Source: an uncultured delta proteobacterium (GTDB lineage Bacteria; Desulfobacterota; Syntrophobacteria; Syntrophobacterales; Syntrophobacteraceae). Taken from it: DNA of 64,000 nt. The translations under genes and the position numbers were made by a program. Location of the stretch: the NCBI GenBank assembly GCA_963808625.1, contig CAWEHK010000010.1:1-64000 (forward strand). The letters run 5' to 3'. The notes under the pieces were generated by a model. That model worked only from the letters and a program-made list of their open reading frames with translations. It was not told where the DNA came from and searched no databases. Positions 4,041-64,000 of this stretch are shown here, piece after piece. Every line of letters starts with the position of its first letter. Within the stretch, counting starts at the first letter, position 1.

Positions 4041-5290
4041 ATGCTAAGAGAGAGATCGAAGAATAGAGCTTTTTCTGGTTTGTGTGTAGTGGGCTTTCTG
4101 ATTCTACTTGCAGGGCTGGCCCTCACAGAGCAGGCGCTCGCTCAGCAGGTGCTGTACCGGGAAATCTTTCCGGCTGCCGGTGCGGCAAGGTATCAGAACG
4201 CCATTGACGCAGGATGGTTTGCCGAGCGCAAGGGCGGCGTCTCCACGAACGAACTGTCGATTTTTACCACGACCCTGCCCCCCTCGACCGCCGGCGTCAA
4301 TTCATGCTCCAATACATCAGCTCCGGACAGTAATCTGTTCTGGTCCCCCAAGACTCATGACATCCTGCTCTACACAACGGAACTGAACGTGCCTGTCGCG
4401 AATATCACCTCGATCAGTTGGGACAGCAAGAACAGTTTCGATTGCAGCAGTTGCAGCTGCAATGGTTCTTCGCAGCCCGATCAGGCATGTCGCAACAAGA
4501 GCAAGATGCGCACGGCCATTCTAATCGGCGGCACCTGGTACGTTTCCGATGACTACTTCACGACCCAGACAACGGACATGACCTATGACGGTGGCAATAA
4601 CCGGTGGAATTCCAACGTGTGGGAAACCCACCTCTATCAGTTGGCGGGAAAAACCTATGGAATTTATGATATTGCTATTCCCAGCGCCGGCCGCATCCGA
4701 GATCCGGGACAAACGCTGCCGACCAGCGGCATCGTCGCGGGTTTCGGGCTCTTTCTTGACGGCGATATCGCCGGTACGATCCGGATCGACAACTACACCA
4801 TCCTCGGTTTTTGGTACAACCTGAGCGGGCCCTGTGCCCCGCCGGCAAATCCTGCTCTCAAGGTAACAAAGGGGGCCTCCTTATCGCCAAGTGGACCTTT
4901 TGAGCCTTTCCTGAGTGTCATACAGGGCTCGACCGTTTACTATCAAATCATCGTCTCCAATGTGGGCGATGTTGATCTCCAAAATGTCAGCCTGAACGAC
5001 AGCGTATCTGGTCCTTTCCCTTGCGGGGGCGCGTCTTCTCTCTGCCTGCGCCCGAGTCTGAGCCTTATACCTGCATCTATTTTGCGGAGATCAACTCGAA
5101 GATAACAAACGTCGCAACCGCCACGGGATATTACCGGGAAACGGAAGTTTCACAATCTGCCAGTGCCACGGTTCAAATGACAGCACCTGTCCCCACCATG
5201 ACCGGCCTGGGTATGCTGTTCTTCGTACTGCTTTTATCAGGATCAGTTGTCTGGTTCATGAGATGGAACAAAGCAGCCCAGGGTAGATGA
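4041..5290 (+). CDS. Exported protein: signal peptide, DUF11-like Ig domain, IPTL-CTERM-like C-terminal anchor (frameshift near 5030)
   Basis: RBS AGGAGG; hydrophobic leader ending ALA/QQ; LKVTK...VYYQIIVSNVGDVDLQNVSLND; tail VPTMTGLGMLFFVLLLSGSVVWFMRWNK. Confidence 0.7.
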
Positions 5291-5513
5291 TAGTCCAGTT
5301 TAGACGGCTGAGAATTTTTCAGCTTGGAAGTTAATGGCAAAATGGCGATAGACCTCAGGGGCTTCGGGGACGGAGCCCCGGAGATAAGATCCGTGATCCT
5401 CTGAGCTTTCCATGTTGCTCCCACCCGGAGATTTCCTCCCAATTGCCAGTTTCGGTGGACATCGAAAGACGTTCCCCCCACGTCAGATAGATCCCTGCGA
5501 GGAACAGCGTATC

Positions 5514-5546
5514 GTAGGGTGGGCACAGCGCTTTATCGTGCCCACG
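5514..5546. repeat. GTAG-type REP-like palindrome
   Basis: GTAGGGTGGGCAC-agcgctttatc-GTGCCCAC. Confidence 0.6.
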
Positions 5547-5695
5547 AGGATTGGATGAGAGTTGCTGCCGCGTTGGTCTAGACTCCATAAACCATGGGAA
5601 TTGGGTCAGCCGGGATCGCTCCGCACCCAATATCTTGATTTTTCAGTTGCTCCGCATTCAGCAAACATGTTAAACAACCCTGATTTAATCAAATC

Positions 5696-5768
5696 GCACA
5701 CCCCTTGGACCTTTTGGTGTCCGGTCGCTTGTCAAAACCGGCATGAAACGGGGGTGGAGGCTAAAACC
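5696..5768 (+). promoter_or_regulatory. Probable rpsB (S2) autoregulatory leader
   Basis: CACACCCC...GGGGGTGGAGGCTAAAACC hairpin directly upstream of rpsB. Confidence 0.5.
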
Positions 5769-5783
5769 AGAAGGAGGAATACG

Positions 5784-6596
5784 ATGGCAATTGTCGGAAT
5801 GAAACAACTGTTGGAAGCCGGGGTCCATTTCGGGCATCAGACCCGCCGCTGGAATCCCAAGATGAAGCCGTTCATTTTTGGCGCTCGCAACGGCATTTAC
5901 ATCATCGACCTGCAGCGCACGGTCAGGCTTTTCCATGGGGCCTACCAGTTCGTCACCGAAGCGGCCGCCGCGGGCGAAAGCGTCCTCTTCGTCGGCACCA
6001 AACAGCAGGCCCGGGACACCATCCAGGAAGAAGCGCAACGGTGCGGCATGTACTATGTCAATCAGCGCTGGCTTGGCGGGATGCTCACCAATTTCAAAAC
6101 CATCAAGTTAAGAATCGACCGCCTGAAGGAACTGGATGCGATGGTCGAGGATGGCAGCATCAACCGTTTCCCCAAGAAGGAAATCCTCCAGCTGCAGAAC
6201 GAACGAGAAAAACTGGAAAGGAATCTGGGCGGCATCAAGGACATGACCCGGTTGCCGGGAGCGCTTTTTGTGGTGGACACGAACCGGGAAAATATTTCGG
6301 TTCTGGAAGCCAACCGACTCGGCATTCCCGTGGTGGCAGTTGTTGATACCAATTGCGATCCCGATGTGATCGACTATCCCATTCCTGGAAATGACGACGC
6401 CATCCGGGCCATTCGCCTGGTCACCTCGAAAATTGCCGATGCCTGCGTCGAAGGACGGCAGCGCTACGCAGAAAGCCAGCAGGCCTTTGTGGACAAGGAG
6501 CTTCCTTCCTATGAAGAGGTCCCGGCGGGACAAATCCTGAGTGAGGAAGAAAGCGGGCCGGAAGTGGAGATCGTGAATCCCCTGCCCGAAACCTGA
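5784..6596 (+). CDS. rpsB: 30S ribosomal protein S2
   Basis: [32 protein letters not shown]. Confidence 0.98.
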
Positions 6597-6859
6597 AACG
6601 GAAGCTGAGTGAGTGATGGTTGCTCATTGAAGGGATGAACAGAGGCTTGCCCGGCCTTCTCGCTGCAAAGAACCTGTCAGATTCAAAGCCGACACGATGC
6701 CGCGCAGGCTTCTGGAAAGTCTTCTCCTGGTAAGGGGAAGGCCGTAAGCGGCGGGTTGGAAAACCCGCCCTCCGCTGGAGTCTTCCCCAGGCGCGAGGAA
6801 GACTGCGCGGATCATAAGGCATCTGTCACTAAAGATCCACCTTAGGAAGGAGAAGTGCT

Positions 6860-7453
6860 TTGGAAATAACCGCTGGAATGGTCAAGGATTTAAGAGATAA
6901 GACGAACGCTGGAATGATGGACTGCAAGAAGGCCCTTCAGGAGAACGCAGGGGACATGGAAAAGGCCGTCGATTTCCTCCGCCAAAAAGGGCTGGCCAAA
7001 GCCATGAAACGCTCGGGCAGAGAAGCTTCCGAGGGGATGATCCATGCCTACATCCACGGCGGCGGACGCATCGGGGTCCTGGTGGAAGTAAACTGTGAAA
7101 CCGACTTTGCGGCAAAAAGCGAGGATTTTCTGGAGTTCACAAAAAATATTGCGATGCAGATTGCTGCGGCCAATCCCCTGGCGATCCAGCAGGAGGACAT
7201 CCCGGAAGACGTCATTCAGCGGGAACGAGCCATTTATATGGCTCAGGCCAAAGAAACCGGAAAGCCCGAAAATATTCTGGAAAAGATGGTGGACGGCAAG
7301 ATGCGCAAATACTATGAAGAGTGCGTCCTCCTGCAGCAGACTTACGTCAAAGATCCGGACAAAACCATTCAGGATTATCTGAACGAACTGGTCGCGAAGA
7401 TCGGAGAAAAGATCATCATTCGCCGGTTCGCCCGGTACCAGCTCGGCGAATAG
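6860..7453 (+). CDS. tsf: Elongation factor Ts (short form)
   Basis: VKDLRDKTNAGMMDCKKAL; EVNCETDF. Confidence 0.97.
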   Translation: MEITAGMVKDLRDKTNAGMMDCKKALQENAGDMEKAVDFLRQKGLAKAMKRSGREASEGMIHAYIHGGGRIGVLVEVNCETDFAAKSEDFLEFTKNIAMQIAAANPLAIQQEDIPEDVIQRERAIYMAQAKETGKPENILEKMVDGKMRKYYEECVLLQQTYVKDPDKTIQDYLNELVAKIGEKIIIRRFARYQLGE

Positions 7454-7528
7454 GATTTTAGATCAGGGAAAGAGAAGGAGTGGGCTATGCCCACCTTCTG
7501 GTTCCCATGTCCGGAACGGATGCCAGCA

Positions 7529-8269
7529 ATGAGCCAGACCGAACACCCTCTGTATCGTCGGATTCTCCTCAAATTGAGCGGTGAAGCGCTGATGGGGAAG
7601 GAGTCGTACGGGATTGACACCCTTGTTCTCCGACAAATAGCGGAGGAAATTCGCGAGATCCATGGGTTGGGTGTTGAGATTGCCCTGGTGATCGGTGGCG
7701 GAAACATCTTTCGCGGGATTTCCGGGGCTTCCCAGGGCATGGATCGCTCCACTGCCGACTATATCGGGATGCTGGCCACGGTGATGAATGCCCTGGCTCT
7801 GCAGCAGGCCCTGGAGAAACTCGGAATCCCCACCCGCGTGCAGTCGGCAATCGACATCACCGAGGTGGCGGAACCCTATATCCGGCGCCGGGCGATTCGC
7901 CACCTGGAAAAGGGCAGAATCGTCATCTTTGCTGCCGGAACCGGACTCCCGTTTTTCACCACCGACACCACCGCCGCTCTGCGGGCCATCGAGATTGGAG
8001 CGGAAATCCTGATGAAAGCCACCAAAGTGGATGGCGTCTATCCGACGGATCCCGAGCAGGACCCTTCTGCCAGTAAATATGACCGGATCACTTACACCGA
8101 AGTCCTGCAGAAGAACCTCAGAGTCATGGACGCCACTGCCATTTCGCTCGCAAGAGAACAGAATATGAGGATTGTGATTTTCAACTTGAGGAACAAGGGC
8201 AATATCAAAAAGGTTATTTTGGGAGAACCAATAGGGACCGTGGTGGAGGGAATCGTTCATGTTGAATGA
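7529..8269 (+). CDS. pyrH: UMP kinase
   Basis: [26 protein letters not shown]. Confidence 0.97.
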
Positions 8270-8817
8270 TATTTATGCGGACGCCGAAGATCGCATGAAT
8301 AAGGCTCTGGAAAGCCTCGAACGTGATTACAGGAAACTGCGCACAGGAAGGGCATCGGTTTCCCTGGTGGACGGGATCAGAGTGGCATATTACGGCACCT
8401 CGACTCCCCTTAGCCAATTGGCGACGCTTACGATACCTGATCCCCGCACGATCATGATCCAGCCTTGGGATATTTCCATCATCGGCGAGGTTGAAAAAGC
8501 CATCTTGAAATCCGAGCTGGGCCTCACGCCAATGAATGATGGCAAGCTCATCCGGATCAACATTCCTCCCCTGACCACCGAGCGGCGTCGAGAGTTGGTC
8601 AAAGTGGTCAAGAAGATGGCCGAGGAAGCCAAGGTTGCCGTGCGCAATATTCGGCGGGATGCCAATGACATGATCAAAGATCTCAAAAAGGACAAAGAGA
8701 TCTCCGAAGATGAGCAGTTCCGGGCCCAGGAGGAGACTCAAAAGGTCACGGATGATTTCATAAAGAAGGATCGACGCCCTTTACACTCTGAAAGAAAAAG
8801 AGATCCTGGAAATTTGA
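8259..8817 (+). CDS. frr: Ribosome recycling factor (1-nt indel near 8769)
   Basis: [24 protein letters not shown]; corrected end KEKEILEI*. Confidence 0.95.
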
Positions 8818-9586
8818 TGACGCCACCGCTCGATCCGGAGAGACTTCCACGCCATATCGCCGTGATCATGGACGGCAATGGACGCTGGGCCAGAGAGCGC
8901 AACCGCAGTCGCATCTTTGGACACCGTGAGGGAAGCAATTCCGTGCGGGAGATCGTGAGCTGTTGCCGGAGACTGGGGATTCCCTATCTGACGCTTTACG
9001 CCTTCTCCAAAGAGAACTGGCAGCGGCCGGATCGGGAGGTGAAGGCCCTGTGGCGGCTTCTCAAAAGTTTTCTGAAATCTCAGTTGCCGGAGATCATCGA
9101 AAAAGAGATACGATTGCGTCACCTTGGGGACGTGGAAGGCATTCCCAAGGATGTGGCGGAGGAACTCCAGGCGGCGGTGGCGGAAACCGCACACTACGAT
9201 AAACTCACCTGAGTCTGGCCATCAATTACGGGGGAAGGCAGGAGATCACCAGGGCCGCAAGACTGTTTGCGGCTGAGGTTCAGCAGGGCAAATGCGACCT
9301 GCACGAGCTTTCCTCTGAGCGCTTTTCCCAATACTTTTTCACCGCTGAATTCCCTGACCCTGACCTGATGATCCGCACGGGGGGCGAATATCGCCTCAGT
9401 AATTTCCTGCTGTGGCAACTGGCGTACGCGGAGCTTTACATCACCAGGGTGTTGTGGCCTGATTTCAGAGAACCCCAATTTATCGAAGCCTTGTGCGAGT
9501 ACCAGCGAAGAGAACGCCGTTTTGGAAAAACCAGCGAACAGGTTCGCCAAACGAAATCTCGAACAGGCAAGGCTAAGCCCTTATAA
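8817..9586 (+). CDS. uppS: Undecaprenyl diphosphate synthase (frameshift near 9209)
   Basis: [42 protein letters not shown]. Confidence 0.95.
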
Positions 9587-9589
9587 ACA

Positions 9590-10431
9590 ATGTGGAATTG
9601 GCATCAGCTCGACTCACATAAGCAGCGCCTGGTCACCGGGACTGCTTCTCGGAGTGCCGCTGCTCGTCGCCTTGGCTGCCGGTCCCTACTGGATGTTGTG
9701 TCTCCTCGTCGGGCTTGCTGTCCGGAATCGGCCTCTGGGAACTGCAGCGGATGATTTTTCATGAGCCCTTGTCCCGGCCATGGCAGGCGTATTTCATCCT
9801 GGCAGGTTTGCTGTTGCCTCTGGCGGCCTCCTGGGGAGGATTTACAGGACTTCATTGCGCCCTCATCACCATCTTTCTCGCCGCGTTTTCTGGGCCTTCT
9901 GGCTTCCTCGCCGCTGGACCCTGCCGGACTCCCTCGCTGTCGCTCACCTCTGCTTGGGCTGGCTTTACATCCCTTACCTTCTGTCCTATGTATTACTGAT
10001 TGGTCGGCTTCCGGAGGGAAGTTTGTGGGTCCTTTACCTTGTTCTTTGTCAATGCTGCCAATGACATTGCAGCGTTATACAGCGGCCGGCATCTTGGACG
10101 TCATAAATTGTATGAGGCCGTGAGCCCAAAGAAAACGATTGAGGGCGCGCTGGGAGGCTTGTTTGCCAGTGTGTTGGTGGGTATGGTTTATGGGACACTC
10201 TTTTTCAAGGGGATAGAGACGTGGGAAATCCTGCTTCTCAGTGGGGTCCTGGCCTTACTGGGTCAGGGCGGCGATCTCATTGAATCCATGATCAAGCGGA
10301 TGGCCGGGAGGAAGGATTCCAGCGAGCTCCTCCCGGGCCATGGTGGCATTTTGGACCGGCTGGACAGCTTGCTTTTTGTAATTCCGGCAACTTTTTTTTA
10401 TTTGGTGTGGAACACGGCAAGATTACTCTAA
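9590..10431 (+). CDS. cdsA: Phosphatidate cytidylyltransferase (several indels)
   Basis: SPKKTIEG; DLIESMIKR...KDSSELLPGHGGILDRLDS. Confidence 0.9.
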
Positions 10432-10434
10432 ACG

Positions 10435-11606
10435 ATGATGACAAAAAAGGCCCTCAGTATTCTCGGAAGCACCGGCTCCATCGGCGTAAGCACACTCGAT
10501 GTGGTCCGGCAATTTCCGGAGCGATTTGAAGTCGTCGCGCTCGCCGCCGGCCGCAATATCGATCTGCTTTGCGAGCAAATCAAGGTCTTTCGGCCTTCGC
10601 TGGTTTCCGTCCTCGATCAGCACCTCGCCGTGCAGTTGCAGCAGCGCTTCCAGTTACAGAGCCATCAACCGGAGGTGCTCTTCGGCCGGGAAGGGTACGA
10701 GCGTGTAGCCGCCTGCCCGCAATCCCGGATGCTGGTCTCCGCCATGGTGGGGGCTGCGGGGCTCCTGCCTACCCTCGCCGCCATCGAAGCCGGCAAGGAC
10801 CTGGCCCTGGCCAATAAAGAAACGCTGGTGATCGCCGGCGAAATCGTCATGCGGCTCGCAAAGTCCAAAGGCATTCATATCCTCCCAGTGGACAGCGAGC
10901 ACAGCGCTATCTTTCAGGCGCTTCAGGGGAACCATCGCGAAGCTTTGAAGCGCATTCTGCTTACCGCATCGGGGGGACCTTTTTTCGCCAAAACGCCCGA
11001 CGAACTGGCGGCGGTGACGCCCGAGGCAGCCTTGCGCCATCCCAATTGGACCATGGGCAGGAAGATCACCATCGACTCCGCCACCCTCATGAACAAAGGG
11101 TTGGAAGTCATCGAAGCGCACTGGCTCTTTGGCGTCCCGGCGGAGCAGATTGCCATTCATATTCATCCGGAGAGTATTGTCCACTCCATGGTGGAGTATA
11201 TCGACGGGTCGGTCATCGCCCAGATGGGAATTCCGGACATGAAAATTCCCATTGCCTATGCTCTGGCCTACCCGGAACGTCTGCCGGTAGAGGGCCCGCC
11301 CCTGGACCTCTTCCGCCTGCGGAACCTGAACTTTTATCCTCCCGATGAGGAGAAATTCCCGTGCTTGCGCCTTGCCTATGAAGCCTGCCGACGCGGCTCG
11401 ACCCTGCCGGCGGTGCTGAATGCGGCGAATGAGGTTGCGGTGGATGCCTTTTTGGATGGCCGCATCACGTTCCTGGAGATTCCGCAGGTCATCGAAACGG
11501 TCATGAAATCTCATCGGGTTGCCCCTTCGCTGACTCTCGAAGCCATTCTGAAGGCTGACAGTGGGCGCGGCAGGAAGCGCAAAGGCTGACGACGTGTTCA
11601 AACTGA
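10435..11606 (+). CDS. dxr: 1-deoxy-D-xylulose 5-phosphate reductoisomerase (indel near the 3' end)
   Basis: LGSTGSIG; LANKE; LPVDSEHSAI; MNKGLEVIEA. Confidence 0.97.
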
Positions 11607-11628
11607 CTCATAAAACAAGGATCGCATC

Positions 11629-12717
11629 TTGGTAACTACAATCTTATCCACCATTGTCGTTTTGGGGTTATTGATTTTCGTCCATGAACTGGGCCATTTC
11701 CTGGTGGCCAAGCGGTCCGGAGTGACGGTGCTTCGTTTCTCACTGGGTTTTGGACCCAGGCTTTTCGGGTTCAAGCGGGGCGATACGGACTACTGTGTGT
11801 CCCTCATTCCACTGGGGGGCTACGTCAAGATGCTGGGTGAGGAACCGGGAGAAGAGATCGATGAAGCGCAGCGGGCCACCAGCTTTTCGTCTCAACCGGT
11901 TGCCAAGCGAATCGCCATCGTGCTGGCCGGTCCGTTCTCGAATTTCCTTCTCGCTATTATCATCTTTGCCCTTATTTACGCCTTTTCCGGCATCCCCCAA
12001 CTCACCCCGGAAATCGGGTCCGTAAGCGCCAACTCACCGGCTGAGCAGGCGGGTCTCATCGCCGGGGATAAAGTCACCACCATCAACGGAAATGCAATCA
12101 GGGACTGGGAAGAGCTTTCCGGGCTCATCGAAAGACTCGGAGTACAGCCGCTGTCGCTTCAAATCGAACGCGGTGGGGAACCGATGATGATCAAAGTCAC
12201 TCCCCGGGTGACTGAGGTGAATAACATCTTTGGGGAGCCCATCAAACGCGCCGTGATTGGCATTACCGCTTCCGGCAAAATTGTCATGAAGGAGGCCAAT
12301 CCCCTCTATGCCGTCTATTACAGCCTGGTTCAGACCTGGCATCTGAGCAAGCTTTTTGTCGTCACCATCGGGAAGCTCCTGGAGGGCGTCGTTTCCGTCA
12401 AGACTTTAGGCGGGCCGATTCTGATTGCCCAAATGGCAGGCCAGCAGGCAAATGAAGGATTACTCAATCTGATCCATTTCATCGCCTTGATCAGCGTGAA
12501 TTTGGCCGTCTTGAATCTGCTTCCCATCCCCGTTCTCGACGGAGGCCATATCCTGTTCTTTCTGATTGAAGGATTGCTCGGCCGGCCCCTTGGTCAAAAG
12601 AAAATCGAATGGGCGCAAAAAGCCGGGATGCTCCTTCTCCTCGTCCTCATGGTCTTCGTATTTTACAATGACATCATGCGCTTGATGCCCGGACACAAGC
12701 CGGATTTTCTGCCTTAG
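11629..12717 (+). CDS. rseP: RIP metalloprotease RseP
   Basis: HELGH; PDZ domain; NLLPIPVLDGGH. Confidence 0.95.
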   Translation: MVTTILSTIVVLGLLIFVHELGHFLVAKRSGVTVLRFSLGFGPRLFGFKRGDTDYCVSLIPLGGYVKMLGEEPGEEIDEAQRATSFSSQPVAKRIAIVLAGPFSNFLLAIIIFALIYAFSGIPQLTPEIGSVSANSPAEQAGLIAGDKVTTINGNAIRDWEELSGLIERLGVQPLSLQIERGGEPMMIKVTPRVTEVNNIFGEPIKRAVIGITASGKIVMKEANPLYAVYYSLVQTWHLSKLFVVTIGKLLEGVVSVKTLGGPILIAQMAGQQANEGLLNLIHFIALISVNLAVLNLLPIPVLDGGHILFFLIEGLLGRPLGQKKIEWAQKAGMLLLLVLMVFVFYNDIMRLMPGHKPDFLP

Positions 12718-12768
12718 GACCGGCTGGCACAAGGCAACTGTCCCCAGGACAGGGAAGATTGCTCCCCT

Positions 12769-13464
12769 ATGAGAATCCTTGCCGTTGACACCTCGACAGC
12801 GTCGGGGAGCATTGCTCTGCTCGAGGGCGCTCGCGTGATGGCCGAGTGGACGCTGCAGTCCTCTCAGACTCACAACCGCCGCCTGCTCAAGAACATCGAC
12901 CTATTCCTGAGCGAGCTTGGATGGACCATCGACTCTCTCGACGGCTTCGCCGTAACCATCGGTCCCGGGAGCTTCACCGGTTTGCGCATTGGGGTGACGA
13001 CGATCAAGACGCTTGCCTGGGCTACCGGTAAACTTTTTGCGGGGATTTCTTCACTGGATGCTCTTGCCGCCCCTTTCGGTTTTGCCGCCCATCCGATTTG
13101 CCCTCTCATCGACGCCCGCAAAAGCGAGATATACTTCGCCTTCTATCAGCCCGACGCACAAGGTGCAATCCAGCCTTCAACGCCCTCCCAGGTGGCCTCT
13201 CCTGAACAGATCATGGAAAGAATAGAGCGTCCCACCATCTTCTGTGGCGATGGCTGGCCGCTATGTCAGGAATTGTTTTCAGCAAGACTTGGACCTTGGG
13301 CAATGGCGGCTTCCAGTCCCTTTCATATCATCCGGGCAAGCCACGTGGGAGAACTGGCGCGCAAGAGATTCGAGGAACAGCAGGTAGAGGACCCGGTCAC
13401 TGCTGTTCCTCTCTATGTGCGGCCGGCCGAGGCGGAAATCCTTCACCCCCACCGTGCCTCATGA
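12769..13464 (+). CDS. tsaB: tRNA t6A biosynthesis protein TsaB
   Basis: ILAVDTST; GPGSFTGLRIG; IDARKSEIY; PLYVR. Confidence 0.93.
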   Translation: MRILAVDTSTASGSIALLEGARVMAEWTLQSSQTHNRRLLKNIDLFLSELGWTIDSLDGFAVTIGPGSFTGLRIGVTTIKTLAWATGKLFAGISSLDALAAPFGFAAHPICPLIDARKSEIYFAFYQPDAQGAIQPSTPSQVASPEQIMERIERPTIFCGDGWPLCQELFSARLGPWAMAASSPFHIIRASHVGELARKRFEEQQVEDPVTAVPLYVRPAEAEILHPHRAS

Positions 13465-14147
13465 GCGCACACGTCACCAGGTCGAAAGACGGGGTGACCG
13501 ACGCAGAGAAAACCCGTAAAGCCATTCTCCGATCGCTCGGGAGGGCCCGCAAGCTTGGCCGGATCACCCCGGTGACCGCATCGGCCCTGAAAAATCGTTG
13601 CTTTCCGATTACCTATTTTCTTCGTAACGTGCTGACTCTTCAAAAGGAAACCGGGTGGATGCAAGGTTGTCGGCGGGTTCAGAACAACCGCCTGCTCAGG
13701 CTGCTCGACGAACGAGCCCGCATTTTTCTCGCGGTGCGAAAATGGATCATGGCGAGGCGGGAGGAAGATGGATGGCGAACGCAGATACGGTCTATCCGCC
13801 AGGGTCCCTTCTTACCATCGGGCTATTGCCGCCACTGTGGAGGTTGTTGTGAAATTGCCAGCGGTCTTCCTGATTTTCCACCCGAGACAGCCATCCCTCT
13901 GCGCTGGCGGCACATTTTCGGCGACGGCCTGGGAAGAGGCCATCGCTTCTGTGCCTTCCTTTGGGAGCTCAACGCCTCGGGGCGAAGCCTTTGCGCCATT
14001 CACCCGTGGCGCTCCAATCCCTGTCGCGTCTTTGAAAAGGAAGAATGTGACTATTTCATGAAAGATCTGGAAACGAACCCTCTCTTCGATCCCAAAGCCT
14101 TCTCAGTGGCGTGCCGTCGGCTCTCCCATCTGATTAATCGCGGATAA
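13461..14147 (+). CDS. YkgJ-like cysteine-cluster (Zn/Fe-chelating) protein
   Basis: CRHCGGCC...CAFL...CAIHPWRSNPCRVF. Confidence 0.7.
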   Translation: MSAHVTRSKDGVTDAEKTRKAILRSLGRARKLGRITPVTASALKNRCFPITYFLRNVLTLQKETGWMQGCRRVQNNRLLRLLDERARIFLAVRKWIMARREEDGWRTQIRSIRQGPFLPSGYCRHCGGCCEIASGLPDFPPETAIPLRWRHIFGDGLGRGHRFCAFLWELNASGRSLCAIHPWRSNPCRVFEKEECDYFMKDLETNPLFDPKAFSVACRRLSHLINRG

Positions 14148-31446: not shown

Positions 31447-31517
31447 ATCCCACAATTTCTTCGTATTTCTATTCGGTCATTCGTATTGGAATTGGATATT
31501 CGGTTGCGTTCTCAGTT

Positions 31518-56459: not shown

Positions 56460-56469
56460 TCAAGTAGAA

Positions 56470-56530
56470 TGGTGCCTGGGACGAGACTCGAACTCGTACA
56501 GAGATGAACTCCGAGGGATTTTAAGTCCCT
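56470..56530 (-). tRNA. 3' part of tRNA-Leu(UAA), serving as the att site of the integrated element (not a complete tRNA)
   Basis: Minus strand AGGGAC-TTAAAA-TCCCT, long variable arm, GTTCGAGTC T-loop, CCA; D-arm and 5' acceptor strand replaced by AT-rich DNA. Confidence 0.9.
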
Positions 56531-56572
56531 CAAAATAATTTTCACTCATTTTCACATATTTTAATAAAACGC

Positions 56573-56600
56573 TTGACATAACAAGGTTTATCGCTATTCT
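56573..56600 (+). promoter_or_regulatory. Putative integrase promoter
   Basis: TTGACA-16 nt-TATTCT. Confidence 0.55.
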
Positions 56601-56691
56601 ATCTTCACTGAGTTTAACTCAGTTTGGCCTAAGTTCACCCCAAAGTGTGGGATAAATGTGGGATAGATTTTCAAGGACCAGGAGGCCGACC

Positions 56692-57912
56692 ATGCCAAAA
56701 TGGATCAAAACGAATGTTGAAGGTGTCCGCTATCGGGAACATCCCACCAGGAAACATGGAGTCAGGCGCGACCGCTATTATAGCATCCGCTACAGGCTTA
56801 ATGGTAGGGTCCTGGAACAGGGCGTGGGTTGGGCGTCTAAGGGCGTAACCCTCGAAGATGCTGTCACCAGACGAAAAGAGCTCACAGACAACAAAAAGAA
56901 GGGAAGCGGACCCCTCACGATCAAAGAACAACGAGCTGAGAACGAAGCGAAACGCGAAGCTGAAACCGTCAAGCGCAAACGGGATGTGGAGGCCAACAAG
57001 ACCCTCTCCGAATACTGGAAGGAATCATATTTTCCTGCGGCTCAGCGATCCAAGAAAGCGAGCTCATGGTGTAAGGAAGAAACCCATTTCCGACTGTGGA
57101 TAGGACCCCTCTTCGGAAAACTTCCCCTGCGATCCATCGGGCTCAAGCAATGGGATGAACTCGTCAAGACCCTATCGGCTAAAGGGCTATCCCCGCGCTC
57201 AAAGGAGTACATCTGCGGCACTCTGCGGCGGATTCTGAAGCATGCCTATGACCGGCGCATGGTGGATGATTCCCCACCATCAGGCAAGCGGATCGGTGTC
57301 ACCGGGCCTGGGAAATAACCGGCGCCTTCGCGTGATCTCCCATGAGGAAGAGGCCGCGATTATGGAGAATCTCTCCGTCACCGATATGAACGCATGGCGG
57401 ATAACTCGTTTCTGTTTTCTTACTGGGTGCCGAGCCGGGGAAGCCTTCGCGTTGACCTGGCAGAACGTTGACCGTCAAGCGGTGTGATTGTCTTTGCTGA
57501 AACAAAGAACCGCGATCCCCGGACCATCCCGCTATCAAAACCATTGATGGACCTGTTTGATTCCATGGAGTCAGGAACCCCGGGCCAGCACGTTTTCACC
57601 AAAGCGGACGGATCACCATATCTCGAAGCTCCAAGCGCATTCAGGTCGGCTGTCAAGAATCTCGGGTTCAATCAGGACTACTCGAAACGGGACAAGCTGG
57701 TTTTTCACTCCATCCGGCACACGGTTGCCACCCGGTTAGCTCAGCGTCTTGGACCCCGTGACCTTATGGACGTTATGGGCTGGCGTACCGTTCAGATGGC
57801 AATGCGCTATGTTCACGGCAATGAAGATGCCAAAATGAAGGCACTTGGGATGCTCGGGGCCATACCTGAAACGGGCAAAGTCCTGCCTTTCAAGAATGTG
57901 AGCAACAAATAA
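56692..57912 (+). CDS. Tyrosine integrase (indels near 57312 and 57483)
   Basis: TGCRAGE; ETKN; FHSIRHT; MRYVH; N-terminal arm-binding region. Confidence 0.93.
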
Positions 57913-57917
57913 TCACT

Positions 57918-57971
57918 TTCCAGGGATAGCCGGCGGGCGACAAGCGGGAATCCTCACCCGCTTCCCTGGAA
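57918..57971 (+). ncRNA. Structured RNA motif after the integrase (int-alpA-like candidate)
   Basis: TTCCAGGGA/TCCCTGGAA closing stem and inner AGCGGG/CCCGCT stem. Confidence 0.4.
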
Positions 57972-58000
57972 CCCATGAGGACCGATTAGAGGAGTCGGAC

Positions 58001-58690
58001 ATGGAAAAGTGCAAGCATGATATTGTTGTGTGTTTAGCTGAAACAGAAAAAGAGGCAACCAAAATCATTGAATCACTGACTGCTTTGCATCCAGATTTGA
58101 CCGTATCGAGCGTGCAAAATAATCTGGATAGGCTCCTGAGCATACTCCCTTCATCCACCAGGAAGAAAACCTCCGAGGTCGTTCAAGATATTATGGCGCA
58201 CCAGTATTTTCTTGCTGCATACGAAATAAAACGGCTGATTGCGATACTTGATGGGCATGATTCTGTTGAATCGATCAACCCATGGCTGCTAGCGGATGCA
58301 ATGTATCACATCGGACTCAGGCAGGGCATGTTAAACGAATCCAAATGGCTTTTTCGTGATGACTTTTCCGGGATAGTTCGCTCTCTGCTTGCAAGGGATG
58401 ATCGAAAGAGTGGGCATGAACAAGAAGACATCATCCGTCAACGGTTGTTTGATGATTTTGAAGAGTATGCGCGCGGAAGAATTGCGAAAGGCTACACAGG
58501 GAGCGCCACAACCCTCGTTCGGACTGCATTAAATCTCCCGAAGTTTAGCAAGTTGAAAGCGGCAACAACCCCGGAAATGGATAATAGTGGCGGGCCTATG
58601 GATGGAAAGATCACGAAACGGGCTTTGATTAAGGTAAGGCGGCTTGAGGAGTCTGCCAGGAAACTACTCAAAAACGCGTCTCAAAAATAA
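58001..58690 (+). CDS. Hypothetical protein
   Basis: RBS GAGGAG; 229-aa ORF. Confidence 0.75.
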   Translation: MEKCKHDIVVCLAETEKEATKIIESLTALHPDLTVSSVQNNLDRLLSILPSSTRKKTSEVVQDIMAHQYFLAAYEIKRLIAILDGHDSVESINPWLLADAMYHIGLRQGMLNESKWLFRDDFSGIVRSLLARDDRKSGHEQEDIIRQRLFDDFEEYARGRIAKGYTGSATTLVRTALNLPKFSKLKAATTPEMDNSGGPMDGKITKRALIKVRRLEESARKLLKNASQK

Positions 58691-58839
58691 CCCCAACTAT
58701 TCCCGTCATACGACCAACCTTCATTTTTTGTGCCCGATAGTCTATTGGGCTGCCTTCTAGTCTATCAAGCAATTTGACATGTAATTCCAATAGCTTATGC
58801 TTGCATCACACTGAATCATTAACAGAAGGAGATTCAACG

Positions 58840-59112
58840 ATGCAATGCGATCTAACAGCGCTCAAGAGCAAGTGGCCCAGCGCCTATGTCGCGCGGCGCG
58901 AGGTGGGTATTTTCACTGGCGGGATGATCAGCCCCGGAACCGTGGCCAACGCGGATTGCAAGGAGGAGGGGCCGCAGGGAGCAATCAGAGTGGGCCGGAA
59001 TGTCGCCTATCCCGTGGAAAGTTTCATCGCTTGGCTTGAGACCAGGGTTTCGGTGAAGAGGGGCGATATGAGCAAGGTTCGAGCCGGCAAGAAACGGACC
59101 AGGCTGCAATGA
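58840..59112 (+). CDS. AlpA/excisionase-like DNA-binding protein
   Basis: ISPGTVANAD...GPQGAIRVGRNVAYPVESFIAWL; RBS AAGGAG. Confidence 0.7.
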   Translation: MQCDLTALKSKWPSAYVARREVGIFTGGMISPGTVANADCKEEGPQGAIRVGRNVAYPVESFIAWLETRVSVKRGDMSKVRAGKKRTRLQ

Positions 59113-59182
59113 CCAGGGGCAAAAATAGCAACGCCCGGCGGCGACCGGGCGGCAGGGTGAAACACTCAAAGGCTGGTTCAAA

Positions 59183-61147
59183 ATGACACATTTGGTTGAA
59201 AATGTCAAGCCTGACCTAATTCCCGAAATCAAATCAAGGCTCTCCTGCCGGACCTTATATCAGCGATTGTGGCCGGACAAGTTTCGGGAAAAGGACAACT
59301 GCCTCTCCTTCTGTCACGATGACCGAACGCCCTCCTGCCAGGTGAGCAAAGAGGCGGCTTACTGCCATACCTGCAAGCGAAAATTCGATGCATTAGACCT
59401 GTATTGCGAAGGGACCGGCCTTTCAAAAGGCGATGCGATCCGCGAATTGGCAAAGGAACTCGGGCTCAACAATGGGAGCGAACCATCAAAATCAAACACC
59501 GATTTCACGGCACAGTGGACTCGTCTCGAGCGGAACTCTCTGGCGCCGGGGGCAATTGCCTACCTCGAACAGGAAAGATCTTTGAAGGGTATTGTTGAGC
59601 CATTAAAGAAGACTCACCTTATCGGGTTTTCACCAAGGACAACGCAATGGCCTGCTGCGGTAGCCTTTCCTTTGACGGATTGGCAGAGAACGACACTGCA
59701 AGGGATTCAGTATATCCCAATCGGTGGAGGCGATAAGAAATTCGCCAAAGGCACTCCGGCAAAGGATGTTTTTTTTCGCATGGACGGCAGCGGCGGCAAT
59801 TACCTCGTGCTCACCGAGGGCATTGTTGATTGCCTGTCCGTTCTCGTGGCCTGCAAGACGATTGACGTTGACGTGGCCGCGATCCTCTCCGCCGGATTCG
59901 TTGATAAGCTGGCCCATGTTCCGGGAAACCCCGTTCTGTTCTTCGATAATGACGACAAGGGCCGCGAAGCCACCGCCAAAGCGATCAAGATCACGAAAGG
60001 GAATTGCCGGGTTGTCGATTGGACTATGGCCCCGGCAGGGATGAAAGATTGCAACGATCTCCTGCGGGACGGCCATGCCGATATCATTGAACGCATGATC
60101 CAGGCTTCCAGGATGCCGGAAGACACGACCGACGACGAGCCACCCATTACAATCATATCAGGCTTGGACCTGATATCCGCCGATCTCGGGCACGACAACC
60201 CTGTCATTGTTAAATTGCTTGGCGAAAAGGAATCACTGCTTCTTACCGGGGCCTCCGGCATCGGAAAAAGCCTTTTCGTCAACAATGTTGCCTTGGTTCT
60301 GGGAGATCCGCCCTTGACTGGATTGTGGGGAATGTTCCCAATTCCCAAAGCCGTCAGCAGCATTTTCGTGCAGTCGGAGAACTCCGCCAAAGCCACCCAG
60401 AGGCGTTTAAAAATGATCATGGAGGGAGCACCCTATCTCCGGGGCGGCATCGAAAGAATATTCTATCCCATGATCAAAGACGATATCCGGCTCATTGGTG
60501 ATCTTCAGGAACACGATTTCCAAGAACGGTTGAAGGAAATCATCGCTGCAACCAGGGCCGGCTTACTGATACTTGATCCGCTCATTTCCTACCACTGGAA
60601 AGATGAAAACAGCAATTCAGATATGCGGAAGACTCTGGACTGTCTGACCCTCATTTCTGAGGATAGCGGAGCTGCCTGTCTTGTTGTTCACCATGTTGGC
60701 AAGAACGGAATGAGTGCTCGCGGTGCGTCCGCTATTGAAGATTGGGCTGCAAACATTCTGGCGTTGGAAGAAGTGACACGACATGACAAGACTTTCATCC
60801 AGGCTACCCACAAAAAATCGCGGAACTTTGACAGAGTTCAGCCGTTCTTTTTGGAGCGGACCCGATATCTGGAACTACTGAAGGCGGACCCGCAAGAGGT
60901 TGCCGGAGTCATTGACGTGCTGGAAGCACTCAAGGATGCAGGTGGAGAGGTGAATAAGAAGTCTGAGTTCATCGAGTTGGTAGTTGGTCGGATGAATTGC
61001 AGTGAGGTTACTGCCAGACGAGCCATCGCTAAGGCTCAAACAAGCGGTCTTGTCGTTGAGATCAAAACCGGAAGGAAGAAGGCGTTCAAATTGGCGAACA
61101 GTGATCATGACCCTGAGAATAGTGATCACCACGATAGTGATCAGTGA
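59183..61147 (+). CDS. Primase-helicase: CHC2 zinc finger, TOPRIM and RepA/AAA_25 helicase
   Basis: C..HDDRTPS...CHTC; TEGIVD; FDNDDKG; KDCND; GASGIGKS; LILDPL; VHHVGK; RGASA. Confidence 0.9.
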   Translation: MTHLVENVKPDLIPEIKSRLSCRTLYQRLWPDKFREKDNCLSFCHDDRTPSCQVSKEAAYCHTCKRKFDALDLYCEGTGLSKGDAIRELAKELGLNNGSEPSKSNTDFTAQWTRLERNSLAPGAIAYLEQERSLKGIVEPLKKTHLIGFSPRTTQWPAAVAFPLTDWQRTTLQGIQYIPIGGGDKKFAKGTPAKDVFFRMDGSGGNYLVLTEGIVDCLSVLVACKTIDVDVAAILSAGFVDKLAHVPGNPVLFFDNDDKGREATAKAIKITKGNCRVVDWTMAPAGMKDCNDLLRDGHADIIERMIQASRMPEDTTDDEPPITIISGLDLISADLGHDNPVIVKLLGEKESLLLTGASGIGKSLFVNNVALVLGDPPLTGLWGMFPIPKAVSSIFVQSENSAKATQRRLKMIMEGAPYLRGGIERIFYPMIKDDIRLIGDLQEHDFQERLKEIIAATRAGLLILDPLISYHWKDENSNSDMRKTLDCLTLISEDSGAACLVVHHVGKNGMSARGASAIEDWAANILALEEVTRHDKTFIQATHKKSRNFDRVQPFFLERTRYLELLKADPQEVAGVIDVLEALKDAGGEVNKKSEFIELVVGRMNCSEVTARRAIAKAQTSGLVVEIKTGRKKAFKLANSDHDPENSDHHDSDQ

Positions 61148-61352
61148 GGGGTGAACACCTTGCAAACCTATACAGCGCAACAGTTTAGCAATTGTGATCA
61201 TTGTGATAGTGATCATTCCTGGGTGATCACCTTTGCAAGTAATTGAATTTATTACATATGTGAATAGTGATCATAGTTGTCTCTATAGAGAGAGAAAGGG
61301 TGATCACAATCCCTTTCTCTCTACTGAGACTATAGCCACAAGAAGGTGATCA
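61101..61352. repeat. Iteron array (9 x GTGATCA) with hairpin; putative replication origin
   Basis: Copies at 61101, 61122, 61137, 61194, 61209, 61223, 61267, 61300, 61346; AT-rich 61240-61266. Confidence 0.8.
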
Positions 61353-61354
61353 GA

Positions 61355-61615
61355 ATGAAAATCATTTTATCGGATCGAGTTAAGGCGGTTGTCGAAGATA
61401 GGCCTTTTCCGGATCTCTCTATTGAGGAACATCCCCTTTTGCTGGGGTATCCAAATCAGGACGGCCAGGTCAAATGCGTTTACTGTCTCTCCTACCGGAA
61501 TCACCGATGCACTCATGGTCACCAGTTGGACGGGATATCCCTGCTTCGGGAGTGCGGCGACTTCGGGTTCAACCGAGATGCGTATCAGGACTTCTATTCC
61601 AACATGAAGGGATGA
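61355..61615 (+). CDS. Small Cys-containing hypothetical protein
   Basis: KCVYC...RC...REC. Confidence 0.55.
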   Translation: MKIILSDRVKAVVEDRPFPDLSIEEHPLLLGYPNQDGQVKCVYCLSYRNHRCTHGHQLDGISLLRECGDFGFNRDAYQDFYSNMKG

Positions 61616-61827
61616 TGACAATGGATGAGGACGAACGCCAAGACGTGGCCGGTGCACTCGGCGACATAGCTAGCCAACTGAAGTATCTGGGCAACGGCAA
61701 TGCCGCAACCCAGATGGGCGCTATCGAAGGTCTCGCCATGCAAGTGAAGGCGGGGCTGGATGGTATTGCGGAAGGGCTTCATGCGATTGCGAAGGCCATT
61801 GAGGATCACGTCATGGAGCTGATGTGA
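61612..61827 (+). CDS. Small helical hypothetical protein
   Basis: ATGA-coupled; LKYLGNGNAATQMGAIEGLA. Confidence 0.6.
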   Translation: MMTMDEDERQDVAGALGDIASQLKYLGNGNAATQMGAIEGLAMQVKAGLDGIAEGLHAIAKAIEDHVMELM

Positions 61828-62711
61828 TGATGACAGCAATTAATGAGTCTAGACCGATAAAACAGCGCCGGACGAAATCGGATATGTCAGAGCTGCGGTC
61901 AATCATTTACTCCGTGGTGGAAGAAGACGAACCGATGACCGTCCGCCAGGTCTTCTATCGCCTCGTCACTATGGGAGCTATAAACAAGACAGAGGCCGAG
62001 TATAAAACAACAGTGGTGCGCCTCCTTGGTGATATGCGGCGGGAAGGCCAGTTGCCTTTCCGATGGATTGCAGACAATACGCGATGGGTGAGACAGGCAA
62101 GAACTCACAATTCTGTGCATGACGCTTTAGAGTGGGGCGCCATGAACTATCGCCGGTCGCTATGGTCTGAGGTGCCGGCCTATGTGGAGATATGGCTTGA
62201 AAAAGAAGCGCTGGCAGGAGTGCTCTTTGACGTAACGCATGAATGGGATGTCCCTCTATATGTGACCCGGGGATACCCGAGCTTGTCTTTCTTGCATAGT
62301 TCCGGTCAAGAGATCCGAGGCCGGCAAGATCCCACATATCTCTACTACTTTGGCGACTTGGACCCGAGCGGTGTGGATATTTCGAGAGTGGTCGAGCGGG
62401 GTATCCGAGAGTTTGCTAATAGAGCAGAGATTTATTTTGAGCGTGTGGCTGTCAACTCAGAACAGGTTGACGAGTGGGACCTACCGACCAGACCGACTAA
62501 GCAAACAGACAGTAGGGCTCATAATTTCCATGGCGAGAGCGTGGAGGTTGACGCGATTCTCCCCGATCGTTTGCGCGATCTGTGCCGTTGGGTGATCGAG
62601 AAGCATTTACCACAGGAAGAACGTGAAAGAGTGCTTGCGATTGAAACAGCCGAGCGAGAGTCATTTCAAGAGATTGCTGGTAGGTATTGGCAACAGCAGC
62701 CGAACGCTTGA
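61824..62711 (+). CDS. Stand-alone Top6A/Spo11-like (Mini-A-like) protein
   Basis: MTVRQVFYRL (wHTH Tyr); WLEKEAL; TRGYPS; FGDLDPSG; FERVAV; EVDA. Confidence 0.78.
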   Translation: MMMTAINESRPIKQRRTKSDMSELRSIIYSVVEEDEPMTVRQVFYRLVTMGAINKTEAEYKTTVVRLLGDMRREGQLPFRWIADNTRWVRQARTHNSVHDALEWGAMNYRRSLWSEVPAYVEIWLEKEALAGVLFDVTHEWDVPLYVTRGYPSLSFLHSSGQEIRGRQDPTYLYYFGDLDPSGVDISRVVERGIREFANRAEIYFERVAVNSEQVDEWDLPTRPTKQTDSRAHNFHGESVEVDAILPDRLRDLCRWVIEKHLPQEERERVLAIETAERESFQEIAGRYWQQQPNA

Positions 62712-62814
62712 AAGGCGGCTGAATGACACACCAAGTCACAAGGTGTGCGGGAAGGCCCACGCAGTAAGGAGTTAGGAGTATGGCAACTGACAGTAAATCA
62801 GGTGGTTGGATAAA

Positions 62815-63267
62815 ATGAAGATACTGATCGACACGCGCGAGCAGCTCCCCTACCAGTTCGAGACCGACGCCGAGCCCGGCAAGCTGGACGTGGGCGACTA
62901 TTCGATTATGGGTGGTGAAAGCCTGGTGGCGGTCGAGCGCAAGACGGTTGACGACTTGGTTCAGTGCCTGACGACCGAACGGGACCGCTTCGAGCGCGAG
63001 CTATACCGGGGGAGGTCCCTGGATTACTTCGCCTTGGTGATCGAGGCGAGCCTGAGTGACCTGGCAAATGGCCGTTACAAGTCCCAGGCGCACCCGAAGG
63101 CGATGATTCAGAGCTTGTTGACGTTCAGCGTCCGATATGGGCTTCCCATCTTCTTTGCGGAGAATAGAGGCTATGGCGCGCGGGTGACTGAAAGCCTGCT
63201 GCTGAAGTATGGCCGGGAGTTGGAGCGGCGTTGCCAGCAGATGCAGAAGCTTAATGAAAAGGACTGA
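62815..63267 (+). CDS. ERCC4-domain nuclease
   Basis: IDTREQ; LDVGDYS; VERKTVDDL. Confidence 0.9.
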   Translation: MKILIDTREQLPYQFETDAEPGKLDVGDYSIMGGESLVAVERKTVDDLVQCLTTERDRFERELYRGRSLDYFALVIEASLSDLANGRYKSQAHPKAMIQSLLTFSVRYGLPIFFAENRGYGARVTESLLLKYGRELERRCQQMQKLNEKD

Positions 63268-63273
63268 AAAGTT

Positions 63274-63663
63274 ATGAATACTCCCAGGGAAAGGCTGACT
63301 CCCAAGCAGCAACGGGCATTGACGGCTCTTTTGACAAGCCCCACCCATGTGGAAGCGGCACGGAAGGCGAATATGAGCGTAACCTCGTTATGGCGCATCC
63401 TTCGGAATGAACGGTTCCAGGAAGTCTACAGGGGTATGCGAAAACAGATCATGGAGTCCGTCATCTGGAAGGCACAGCAATCCTGCGGGGAGGCTCTTGA
63501 TACTCTGATGACGATCAACCGAAATGAGGAAGCCAACGATTCACCGAGGCTTCAAGCAGCAAAAGCACTGCTGGAGGTGGGTTTCAAAGGCTATGAGATC
63601 GAACACATGGAAGAGCGCCTCGCAGTGTTGGAAGCCAGGCAGAATGAACTGGGGGCATTATGA
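63274..63663 (+). CDS. HTH protein, terminase small subunit-like
   Basis: LTPKQQRAL...EAARKANMSVTSLWR...F; RLQAAKALL; C-terminal coiled coil. Confidence 0.6.
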   Translation: MNTPRERLTPKQQRALTALLTSPTHVEAARKANMSVTSLWRILRNERFQEVYRGMRKQIMESVIWKAQQSCGEALDTLMTINRNEEANDSPRLQAAKALLEVGFKGYEIEHMEERLAVLEARQNELGAL

Positions 63664-64000
63664 AGCTGGATGGTATGAAGTCGGTAACAAGGCCGGCAGT
63701 CCACAAGAAGCCGGCAAGCAAGAGTATCGAGCAAGCACCGCTCACATGGCTTTCTCTGGTTGCTCAGGATGAACCGGCGCCGGGGGCTGTGCCGGCATTG
63801 GTTGAGGTGTGGAAGCAGCAGAACGTGGAAGAGGTCGAGGAGCAGCCACCGGAGGAGAAACCGGCGTCATTCCCACCGGCGCCACGATACCGGCTTAATG
63901 CGGATGGAAGCTTTTCGGTTTTCGACCCGCCGCCTGCGATTTACATTCCTGAGCCGCCAAGATGGGTGAGCGGCCATGAGGCCAATGCGATTCGGGAAAG
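63660..64000 (+). CDS. Pro/Glu-rich hypothetical protein (partial)
   Basis: ATGA overlap; frame open to the window end. Confidence 0.5.
   Translation, partial: MKLDGMKSVTRPAVHKKPASKSIEQAPLTWLSLVAQDEPAPGAVPALVEVWKQQNVEEVEEQPPEEKPASFPPAPRYRLNADGSFSVFDPPPAIYIPEPPRWVSGHEANAIRE

Follow-up and report, generated by a model that had tools for sequence, protein, structure and literature searches.

The window analyzed here, 64,000 nucleotides of contig CAWEHK010000010.1 (C10:1-64000; the numbering of C10 runs on past the window), belongs to an uncultured deltaproteobacterium of the phylum Desulfobacterota, whose genome assembly comprises 4.8 Mb in 54 contigs and is 84.6% complete. Close to the right edge of the window begins an integrated element of 13.4 kb (56464-69912), 5.9 kb of which lie beyond that edge. 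This element is probably a phage satellite akin to the phage-inducible chromosomal islands (PICIs), with a predicted small terminase (TerS) that would redirect the packaging motor of a helper phage to the element DNA. The recurring signature, as far as sequence comparison can tell, is a terS-like gene accompanied by genes for peptides that start with R-L-x-x-L-E, found across several phyla in small elements that lack capsid genes.

The limits of the element are set by a perfect repeat, the two copies of which are spaced by 13,382 bp:
56464-56530, no strand: left attachment site (att), 67-bp perfect repeat including the 3′ 61 bases (56470-56530) of a minus-strand tRNA-Leu(TAA)
C10:69846-69912, outside the window: right att, sole other copy of the 67-bp repeat, overlapping an intact tRNA-Leu(TAA) on the complementary strand (69852-69939)
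56641-56663, no strand: 23-bp perfect repeat with tandem TGTGGGA; its twin is at C10:69782-69804, so that one copy lies just inside each element end

The 61-bp tRNA-Leu 3′ fragment reported in a first-pass annotation of this DNA is thus part of a longer repeat, and the second att which that annotation proposed to seek within an intact tRNA-Leu to the right is indeed present. The 23-bp end repeats are likely arm-type sites of the integrase. In one genome of the same genus, 105 bp resembling the right end of the element adjoin the same tRNA, i.e., the end of a related element. Among the 25 open reading frames (ORFs) or ORF pieces of the element, scans detected no genes for capsid, portal, large terminase (TerL), tail or lysis proteins, the only match being terS, and Pfam scans of the same set detected no relaxase or type IV secretion genes; nor does the element encode capsid, portal, TerL and head-tail proteins of its own as in cf-PICI. 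The earlier statement that capsid, tail, lysis and conjugation genes are lacking holds as well for the 14 ORFs past the window, none of which matched virion, lysis or conjugation families. The two outcomes which that annotation had set against its own reading, namely virion genes or a type IV secretion system to the right and the lack of a matching att, were both not observed.

Central to the satellite reading is the following gene:
63274-63663, plus strand: TerS-like protein (phrog_2538, 1.5e-6), helix-turn-helix (HTH) plus long helical hairpin

The structure predicted for this protein (pLDDT 92) consists of the HTH and two long helices. In a Foldseek search, the top 11 ranks are held by phBC6A51, NV1 TerS and PaP3 TerS, with E-values of 0.01-0.09 and none below 0.001; the top two VIA neighbors are phBC6A51 and the DNA-binding domain of SF6 TerS (Z 6.5), closely followed by generic coiled coils. 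The protein is accordingly a predicted small terminase. Its C-terminal tail reads E-x-x-E-x-R-L-x-x-L-E, the recurring type being E-x-L-E-x-R-L-x-x-L-E, and residues E108, R115 and E120 are invariant in 16 aligned rows; two prophage terS genes that are followed by TerL and portal genes lack the tail.

The distribution of this protein points to satellites. Against 50,697 phage records, the TerS-like protein of the element gave 18 matches, namely 16 records named "Streptococcus satellite phage Javan" and two unannotated ones (6.3 and 11.5 kb), and no full phage; that of a relative (L043; locus handles carry the prefix L, contig handles C) gave 38, comprising 34 streptococcal satellites, three short records and one 30.7-kb virus. 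A single weak match was found in 72,556 plasmid records. Of the 401 genomes of the phylum, 14 matched a 16-row profile, to which 11 of these 14 had contributed rows. A scan of 28 of the 64 parts of GTDB yielded 36 loci, the 24 best of which (E 2e-9 or lower) come from Bacillota, deltaproteobacteria, Planctomycetota, Acidobacteriota and Dehalococcoidia. In the tree of these proteins, 14 of the 25 inner branches are unresolved.

Further evidence comes from a second element of the same genome:
C2:17430-28787 (11.4 kb): sister element at tRNA-Thr(CGT), with 45-49-bp repeats

This sister differs from the window element in integrase, tRNA site and replication gene: its integrase is intact, it shows MerR_1 and HTH_17 matches, and its replication slot is occupied by an unrelated 924-aa (amino acid) gene with no Pfam match. 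The two elements nevertheless share 94% identity across 61838-63218 and 89% across 63738-65782, and the gap between these segments covers the terS-like gene, with 35% amino acid identity; the C2 copy of this gene has no in-frame start. Thus, terS has been swapped between two otherwise near-identical late modules of one genome. The combination of different backbones with near-identical late modules implies that the late module occurs as a block within which terS varies, and the exchange of terS alone is as expected for a specificity factor. On C2, a third att copy (31454-31502) bounds a further island of 2.7 kb with two genes, which we take to be an HTH/metallopeptidase and a PIN-type partner. 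Relatives of both elements, in the form of additional integrase/primase modules that are decayed or frameshifted, lie at C47:30000-36000, C48:52700-57758 and C53:1-1400.

Around 25 chosen terS-like loci, same-strand ORFs of at least 150 aa within 8 kb were collected, giving 134 proteins from 23 loci (two loci had none), with families called from the top five matches per protein. Capsid, portal and tail families are absent from these 134 proteins; several of the contigs are short, so that the absences are local. An integrase is encoded in 10 of the 23 loci and a primase, helicase or initiator in 18, and in four (L117, L118, L121 and L126, three of them closely related) a TerL gene lies next to the same terS-like gene. 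By eye, the terS-like gene is of the same type in L117-L126 and of another type in L024, where a TerL gene likewise adjoins it; no capsid gene was seen in any of these five loci (L121: 8346-10405). In L117, the terS-like and TerL genes are followed by an 893-aa ORF that looks like a tape-measure gene.

Short ORFs that begin with R-L-x-x-L-E, the motif of the TerS tail, lie near terS-like genes, and the window element has three:
65550-66082, beyond the window: three peptide genes (66, 52 and 62 aa), all with the start M...R-L/I-x-x-L-E

In 14 of the 36 loci with full-length matches, the 350 bases 3′ of terS contain the start of a short ORF whose product opens with R-[LIV]-x-x-[LIV]-E, compared with 10 of 600 random positions; the 22 misses include nine Dehalococcoidia loci and the two of this genome, in which the peptide genes are 1.9-2.2 kb away on the 3′ side. 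A looser motif, set after the data had been seen and with these 11 loci left out, occurs in 19 of 25 loci versus 19 of 400 host gene ends, and in 8 of the 12 loci outside the profile. Two streptococcal records fail the motif expression and show similar starts by eye. Past residue 15, the peptides show no alignable sequence. The idea that they mimic the N-terminus of TerL was discarded: one TerL (L126) starts similarly and the other TerLs seen do not.

Two sets of relatives bear on what the TerS-like protein does. In Dehalococcoidia, a divergent terS-like gene (L130-L140), present at two places in some genomes, is often followed by an ORF that starts like MNxLxxRxxALRRK; the two genes may be a domesticated pair or a mobile cassette of minimal size, and such stand-alone genes suggest that the protein may have a role outside satellites as well. 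A contig of Marinococcus halophilus (L123:1-7318) has identical 148-bp ends and is likely circular, representing a cultured, tractable member; it encodes a helicase, an ERCC4 protein, a 217-aa helical protein, the terS-like protein and one peptide, with no integrase match. These observations, along with the score of one relative on PF13022, a generic HTH family, the absence of a helper in the genome searches and the spread of satellites in Streptococcus thermophilus (StCIs) by competence (PMC13376191), would fit an integrative island of the cargo-tycheposon or StCI kind that replicates itself, needs no helper and spreads as free DNA or in vesicles, the TerS-like protein and peptides forming a transcription or partition complex. 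This alternative appears unlikely, given that the best structural neighbors of the protein are small terminases, that the same gene adjoins a TerL gene in 4 of 23 loci and that terS is the sole gene exchanged between the sister modules.

The left half of the element contains the genes for integration and replication:
56656-57912, plus strand: tyrosine integrase (PF00589, 1e-13; phrog_1), in three frame pieces
58001-58690, plus strand: 229-aa ORF, no family
58840-59112, plus strand: 90-aa ORF, likely AlpA/Xis-type regulator
59183-61147, plus strand: 654-aa primase-helicase with CHC2 zinc finger, Toprim and AAA_25 (phrog_239, 1e-33)
61101-61352, no strand: likely origin, with 9 GTGATCA sites, inverted repeat and low GC
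61346-61827, plus strand: two small ORFs of 89 and 71 aa

The gene series given in the first-pass annotation is all on the plus strand, as named there, except that the integrase is in three pieces and the "alpA-like" gene lacks a profile match: the 90-aa ORF has none in the Pfam, PHROG and NCBIfam profiles, including AlpA. Compared with eight small HTH proteins chosen by eye as AlpA/Xis-like, it reaches an HHalign probability of 94%, and its homologs lie between integrase and primase in L022, L024, L025 and L081-type elements. The 12 matches to GTGATCA/TGATCAC (9 sites) all fall within 61101-61352, with none elsewhere in the element, against a genome-wide frequency of one per 4.6 kb. Homologs of the 89-aa ORF adjoin decayed replication genes on C48 and C53.

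The integrase frame shifts near 57310 and back near 57480 with no net change in length, and the gene aligns in a single read-through with the integrase of the L022 element. A frame change was seen in 5 of 13 orthologous genes tested, one of them another mobile integrase; small as this sample is, the assembly looks prone to frame errors, and the integrase frameshifts are possibly such errors. If they are real, this copy of the element may be immobile. A polysaccharide-export gene at C2:14200-17000, presumably of the SLBB type, is split over several frames, one sign of many assembly indels.

The frameshifted integrase, the other decayed replication modules on C47, C48 and C53 and the phage origin of the genes would also be compatible with a prophage that decayed after the loss of its virion genes. 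This explanation is largely refuted and can be given very little credence: both att sites are perfect, there are zero remnants of virion genes, no full-length phage matched the terS type of the window, and the same capsid-less layout is bounded by att pairs in unrelated genomes (L022, 9.4 kb; L122, 9.2 kb). The L022 element (4502-13958) is inserted at tRNA-Arg(CCT) with a 51-bp att and encodes an intact relative of the window integrase, an alpA-like gene, a primase and Mini-A (see below); ERCC4 and terS of the type found in the window (A4-type) are absent.

Between the origin and terS lie two genes for nucleic acid enzymes:
61824-62711, plus strand: Mini-A, 295-aa stand-alone homolog of the type IIB topoisomerase A subunit (phrog_6247, 1e-58)
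62806-63267, plus strand: nuclease of the ERCC4/XPF family (PF02732, 4e-14)

Judged by its motifs, the protein first labeled "Top6A-like" is a member of the published Mini-A family, described as proteins of about 300 aa with an RxxFY tyrosine, E plus DxDxxG, a WELDAL-like box and no B subunit (PMC7671362). The catalytic motifs are intact (R41-QVF-Y45, E126, D178-L-D180-PS-G183), with key residues invariant across 11 aligned sequences, and the element has no match to GHKL, the B subunit; length class, motifs and the lack of a nearby B subunit agree with the published family, the WELDAL-like box reading VEVDAI here. The published proteins are from viruses and proviruses (PMC7671362); here, Mini-A occurs in capsid-less elements (the window element, its C2 sister, L022, L025 and L026). 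The ERCC4 protein has what we take to be the family motifs, GDY and ERK-x-x-x-D. Counting this genome, Mini-A matches 14 of the 401 in the phylum, as well as 78 phage records, and ERCC4 matches 53 phage records, e.g., phi105 and haloviruses.

The first-pass annotation noted that the two enzymes sit where PICIs carry helper-interference genes and suggested that they might resolve or package replication products or damage helper DNA. In its strongest form, this reading makes Mini-A and ERCC4, with the HTH gene, a module devoted to interference with the helper, which would attack phage DNA and be the mark of the family. Their intact catalytic motifs, their location between ori and terS, their 94-99% conservation in the C2 sister and a weak JetD-like Toprim match of Mini-A (PADLOC, E 4e-4) accord with this proposal. 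It nonetheless seems improbable: both are normal genes of intact tailed phages, most terS-like elements have neither, and the triplet with the TerS-like type was recovered, by profile searches of all loci collected, only in the two elements of this genome. Mini-A with ERCC4 was seen at one further locus, L026, and ERCC4 with the TerS-like protein at one, L123. As a single query, Mini-A found no relative in IMG/VR or JGI metagenomes, and the 21 viral and 8 metagenome loci of the ERCC4 alignment all lack Mini-A and A4-type terS. L026, with the order primase, ERCC4, DUF5681 protein with the same C-terminal tail, two peptides, coiled coil, Mini-A and integrase, is a close analogue of the element. 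In 7 of the 21 viral loci (three plus four near-duplicates), ERCC4 lies directly 5′ of a DUF5681 or terS-looking gene. The IMG/VR contigs with ERCC4 (L081-L088, mostly 9-20 kb) mostly carry int, an alpA-like homolog and primase genes, as well as a DUF5681 or terS-looking gene, followed in four by a tape-measure-looking ORF. At L172:5553-8183, an 877-aa GHKL plus Top6A-Toprim fusion lies near ERCC4 in place of Mini-A, which fits a self-serving role in topology; this fusion is Topo VIII-like, and the same element has MerR-like, HTH, primase and ERCC4 genes. Mini-A and ERCC4 thus appear to be ordinary genes of phage DNA metabolism that are occasional passengers in such elements, where they would have an accessory role in processing the DNA of the element itself.

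The remaining features are late ORFs and cargo:
63660-64000, plus strand: start of a 132-aa ORF, the only part in the window
64586-65263: 225-aa coiled coil, one of the four ORFs that follow the 132-aa ORF (66 aa, likely HTH; 94 aa; 225 aa; 72 aa)
66147-69423: variable cargo of about 3 kb, five ORFs on the minus strand, one of them DUF6804, and one of 237 aa on the plus strand

The late ORFs beyond the window are common to the C2 element. Defense cargo was considered and set aside, PADLOC giving no match except the weak JetD match of Mini-A, with none in the 9 of the 14 right-half ORFs that were scanned. From a three-row alignment, the 225-aa protein is modeled as a long hairpin of helices at pLDDT 75, and it has only one non-self homolog among 1.84 billion representatives; the same-slot coiled coils of other elements show no detectable homology to it. 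In the Atlas, it matches a Psu cluster (0.93, with a low recognition score), but it has no PF07455 match and three fold searches returned generic hairpins only, so that a Psu/Sid-like scaffold is not established.

The steps by which the proposed satellite might operate can be outlined as follows. A helper phage would induce the AlpA/Xis-like gene, whereupon the element would excise at the 67-bp att and replicate from the GTGATCA origin. ERCC4 and Mini-A may then debranch and untangle the replication products into a packageable form, and TerS would recruit the TerL of the helper. In the weakest step, which assumes a hypothetical binding, the R-L-x-x-L-E peptides might pair as coiled coils with the TerS tail and tune or block terminase assembly.

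Several observations speak against the PICI-like satellite. The integrase is broken as assembled; the fold E-values of TerS are weak (0.01-0.3), and a Z of 6.5 is in the range that VIA calls common; the peptides of this element lie 1.9-2.2 kb downstream of terS rather than adjoining it; at nine Dehalococcoidia loci with full-length matches, the terS-like gene is mostly among host genes with no integrase match; and Pfam, Atlas and fold searches identified no capsid-redirection gene in the element. No helper was seen, three Pfam models and ten protein queries detecting no TerL, portal or capsid in the 84.6%-complete genome. A lytic helper would leave no copy in the host genome. The satellites of Streptococcus thermophilus move by natural competence, transduction being untested there (PMC13376191), and this capacity of streptococcal satellites to travel as free DNA keeps the helper-independent alternative alive.

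Among known systems, the Gram-negative PICIs of the EcCICFT073 type have the same gene order, a size of about 13 kb, a specific att and no structural or lysis genes (PMC6092414; PMC10085698), and the 13.4-kb element fits the size of about 15 kb given for PICIs (PMC6092414; PMC10085698). The PICI features present at the sequence level are an att-specific integrase (frameshifted), a primase-replicase with an iteron origin, a TerS homolog (with weak fold scores) and the absence of virion genes; of those described in the same two papers, only a confirmed regulator and a capsid-redirection gene are missing. In contrast to the Gram-negative PICIs, the regulator of the element has no AlpA profile match, and no capsid-morphogenesis gene was identified. 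From these likenesses we infer that it works like a PICI. The PICI-type layout proposed in the first-pass annotation stands as to the order int-regulator-pri-ori-terS and as to a bounded, capsid-less element of satellite size; the family marker is, however, the TerS-like gene with the peptides.

The streptococcal satellite prophages of the Javan series are likewise 6-18 kb in size, with an integrase, a primase and no virion genes (PMC6813308). The same type of TerS-like protein is found in them, with 29-35% identity across some 115 aa, and is annotated there as "hypothetical protein"; the word "terminase" is absent from the main text of Rezaei Javan et al. 2019 (PMC6813308). In two Javan records, a coiled-coil-like gene of 190-200 aa precedes the TerS-like gene and an ORF with a similar motif follows it. 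These two records lack Mini-A and ERCC4, and their coiled-coil proteins are not detectably homologous to that of the element; streptococcal satellites also have a divergent repressor/integrase arrangement, whereas the core genes of this element are all co-oriented. By description, the element can also be likened to the PICI-like tycheposons, which are tRNA-integrated, 10-20 kb in size and encode a tyrosine recombinase, a primase and terS or capsid, but are said to be cargo-free, in contrast to the roughly 3 kb of cargo present here (bioRxiv 10.1101/2020.12.28.424599).

PICIs catalogued by SatelliteFinder are mostly from Proteobacteria and Firmicutes, and the main text of that paper contains zero occurrences of "Deltaproteobacteria", "Desulfo" and "Chloroflexi" (PMC10085698); tycheposon-related elements are mentioned for Deltaproteobacteria (bioRxiv 10.1101/2020.12.28.424599). 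No prior account of such satellites in Desulfobacterota, or of Mini-A in satellites, was found in the main texts of the literature searched. Within that literature, the element likely represents a PICI-like satellite lineage in hosts for which satellites had not been described. A broader and rather doubtful possibility is a cross-phylum superfamily of satellites (deltaproteobacteria, Bacillota including streptococci, Acidobacteriota and Planctomycetota) held together by a shared packaging cassette rather than by integrase or replicon; the cassette would consist of a satellite-restricted small terminase, the coiled-coil tail of which is copied in one to three tiny peptides. If this is true, the peptides would remodel or jam terminase rings in a manner not yet described, the streptococcal satellite prophages would gain an unrecognized packaging gene, and Mini-A would gain its first small, testable genetic context.

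The present findings extend a satellite-associated type of terS to environmental deltaproteobacteria (14 of the 401 genomes of the phylum, 11 of them profile builders). A hypothetical gene of the well-studied streptococcal satellites becomes a candidate small terminase that is readily testable in non-pathogenic streptococci, and the terS tail together with the R-L-x-x-L-E peptides may serve as a marker for satellites that would escape profile tools. The natural terS swap between the co-resident sister elements of this deltaproteobacterium would provide a ready-made experiment on packaging specificity.

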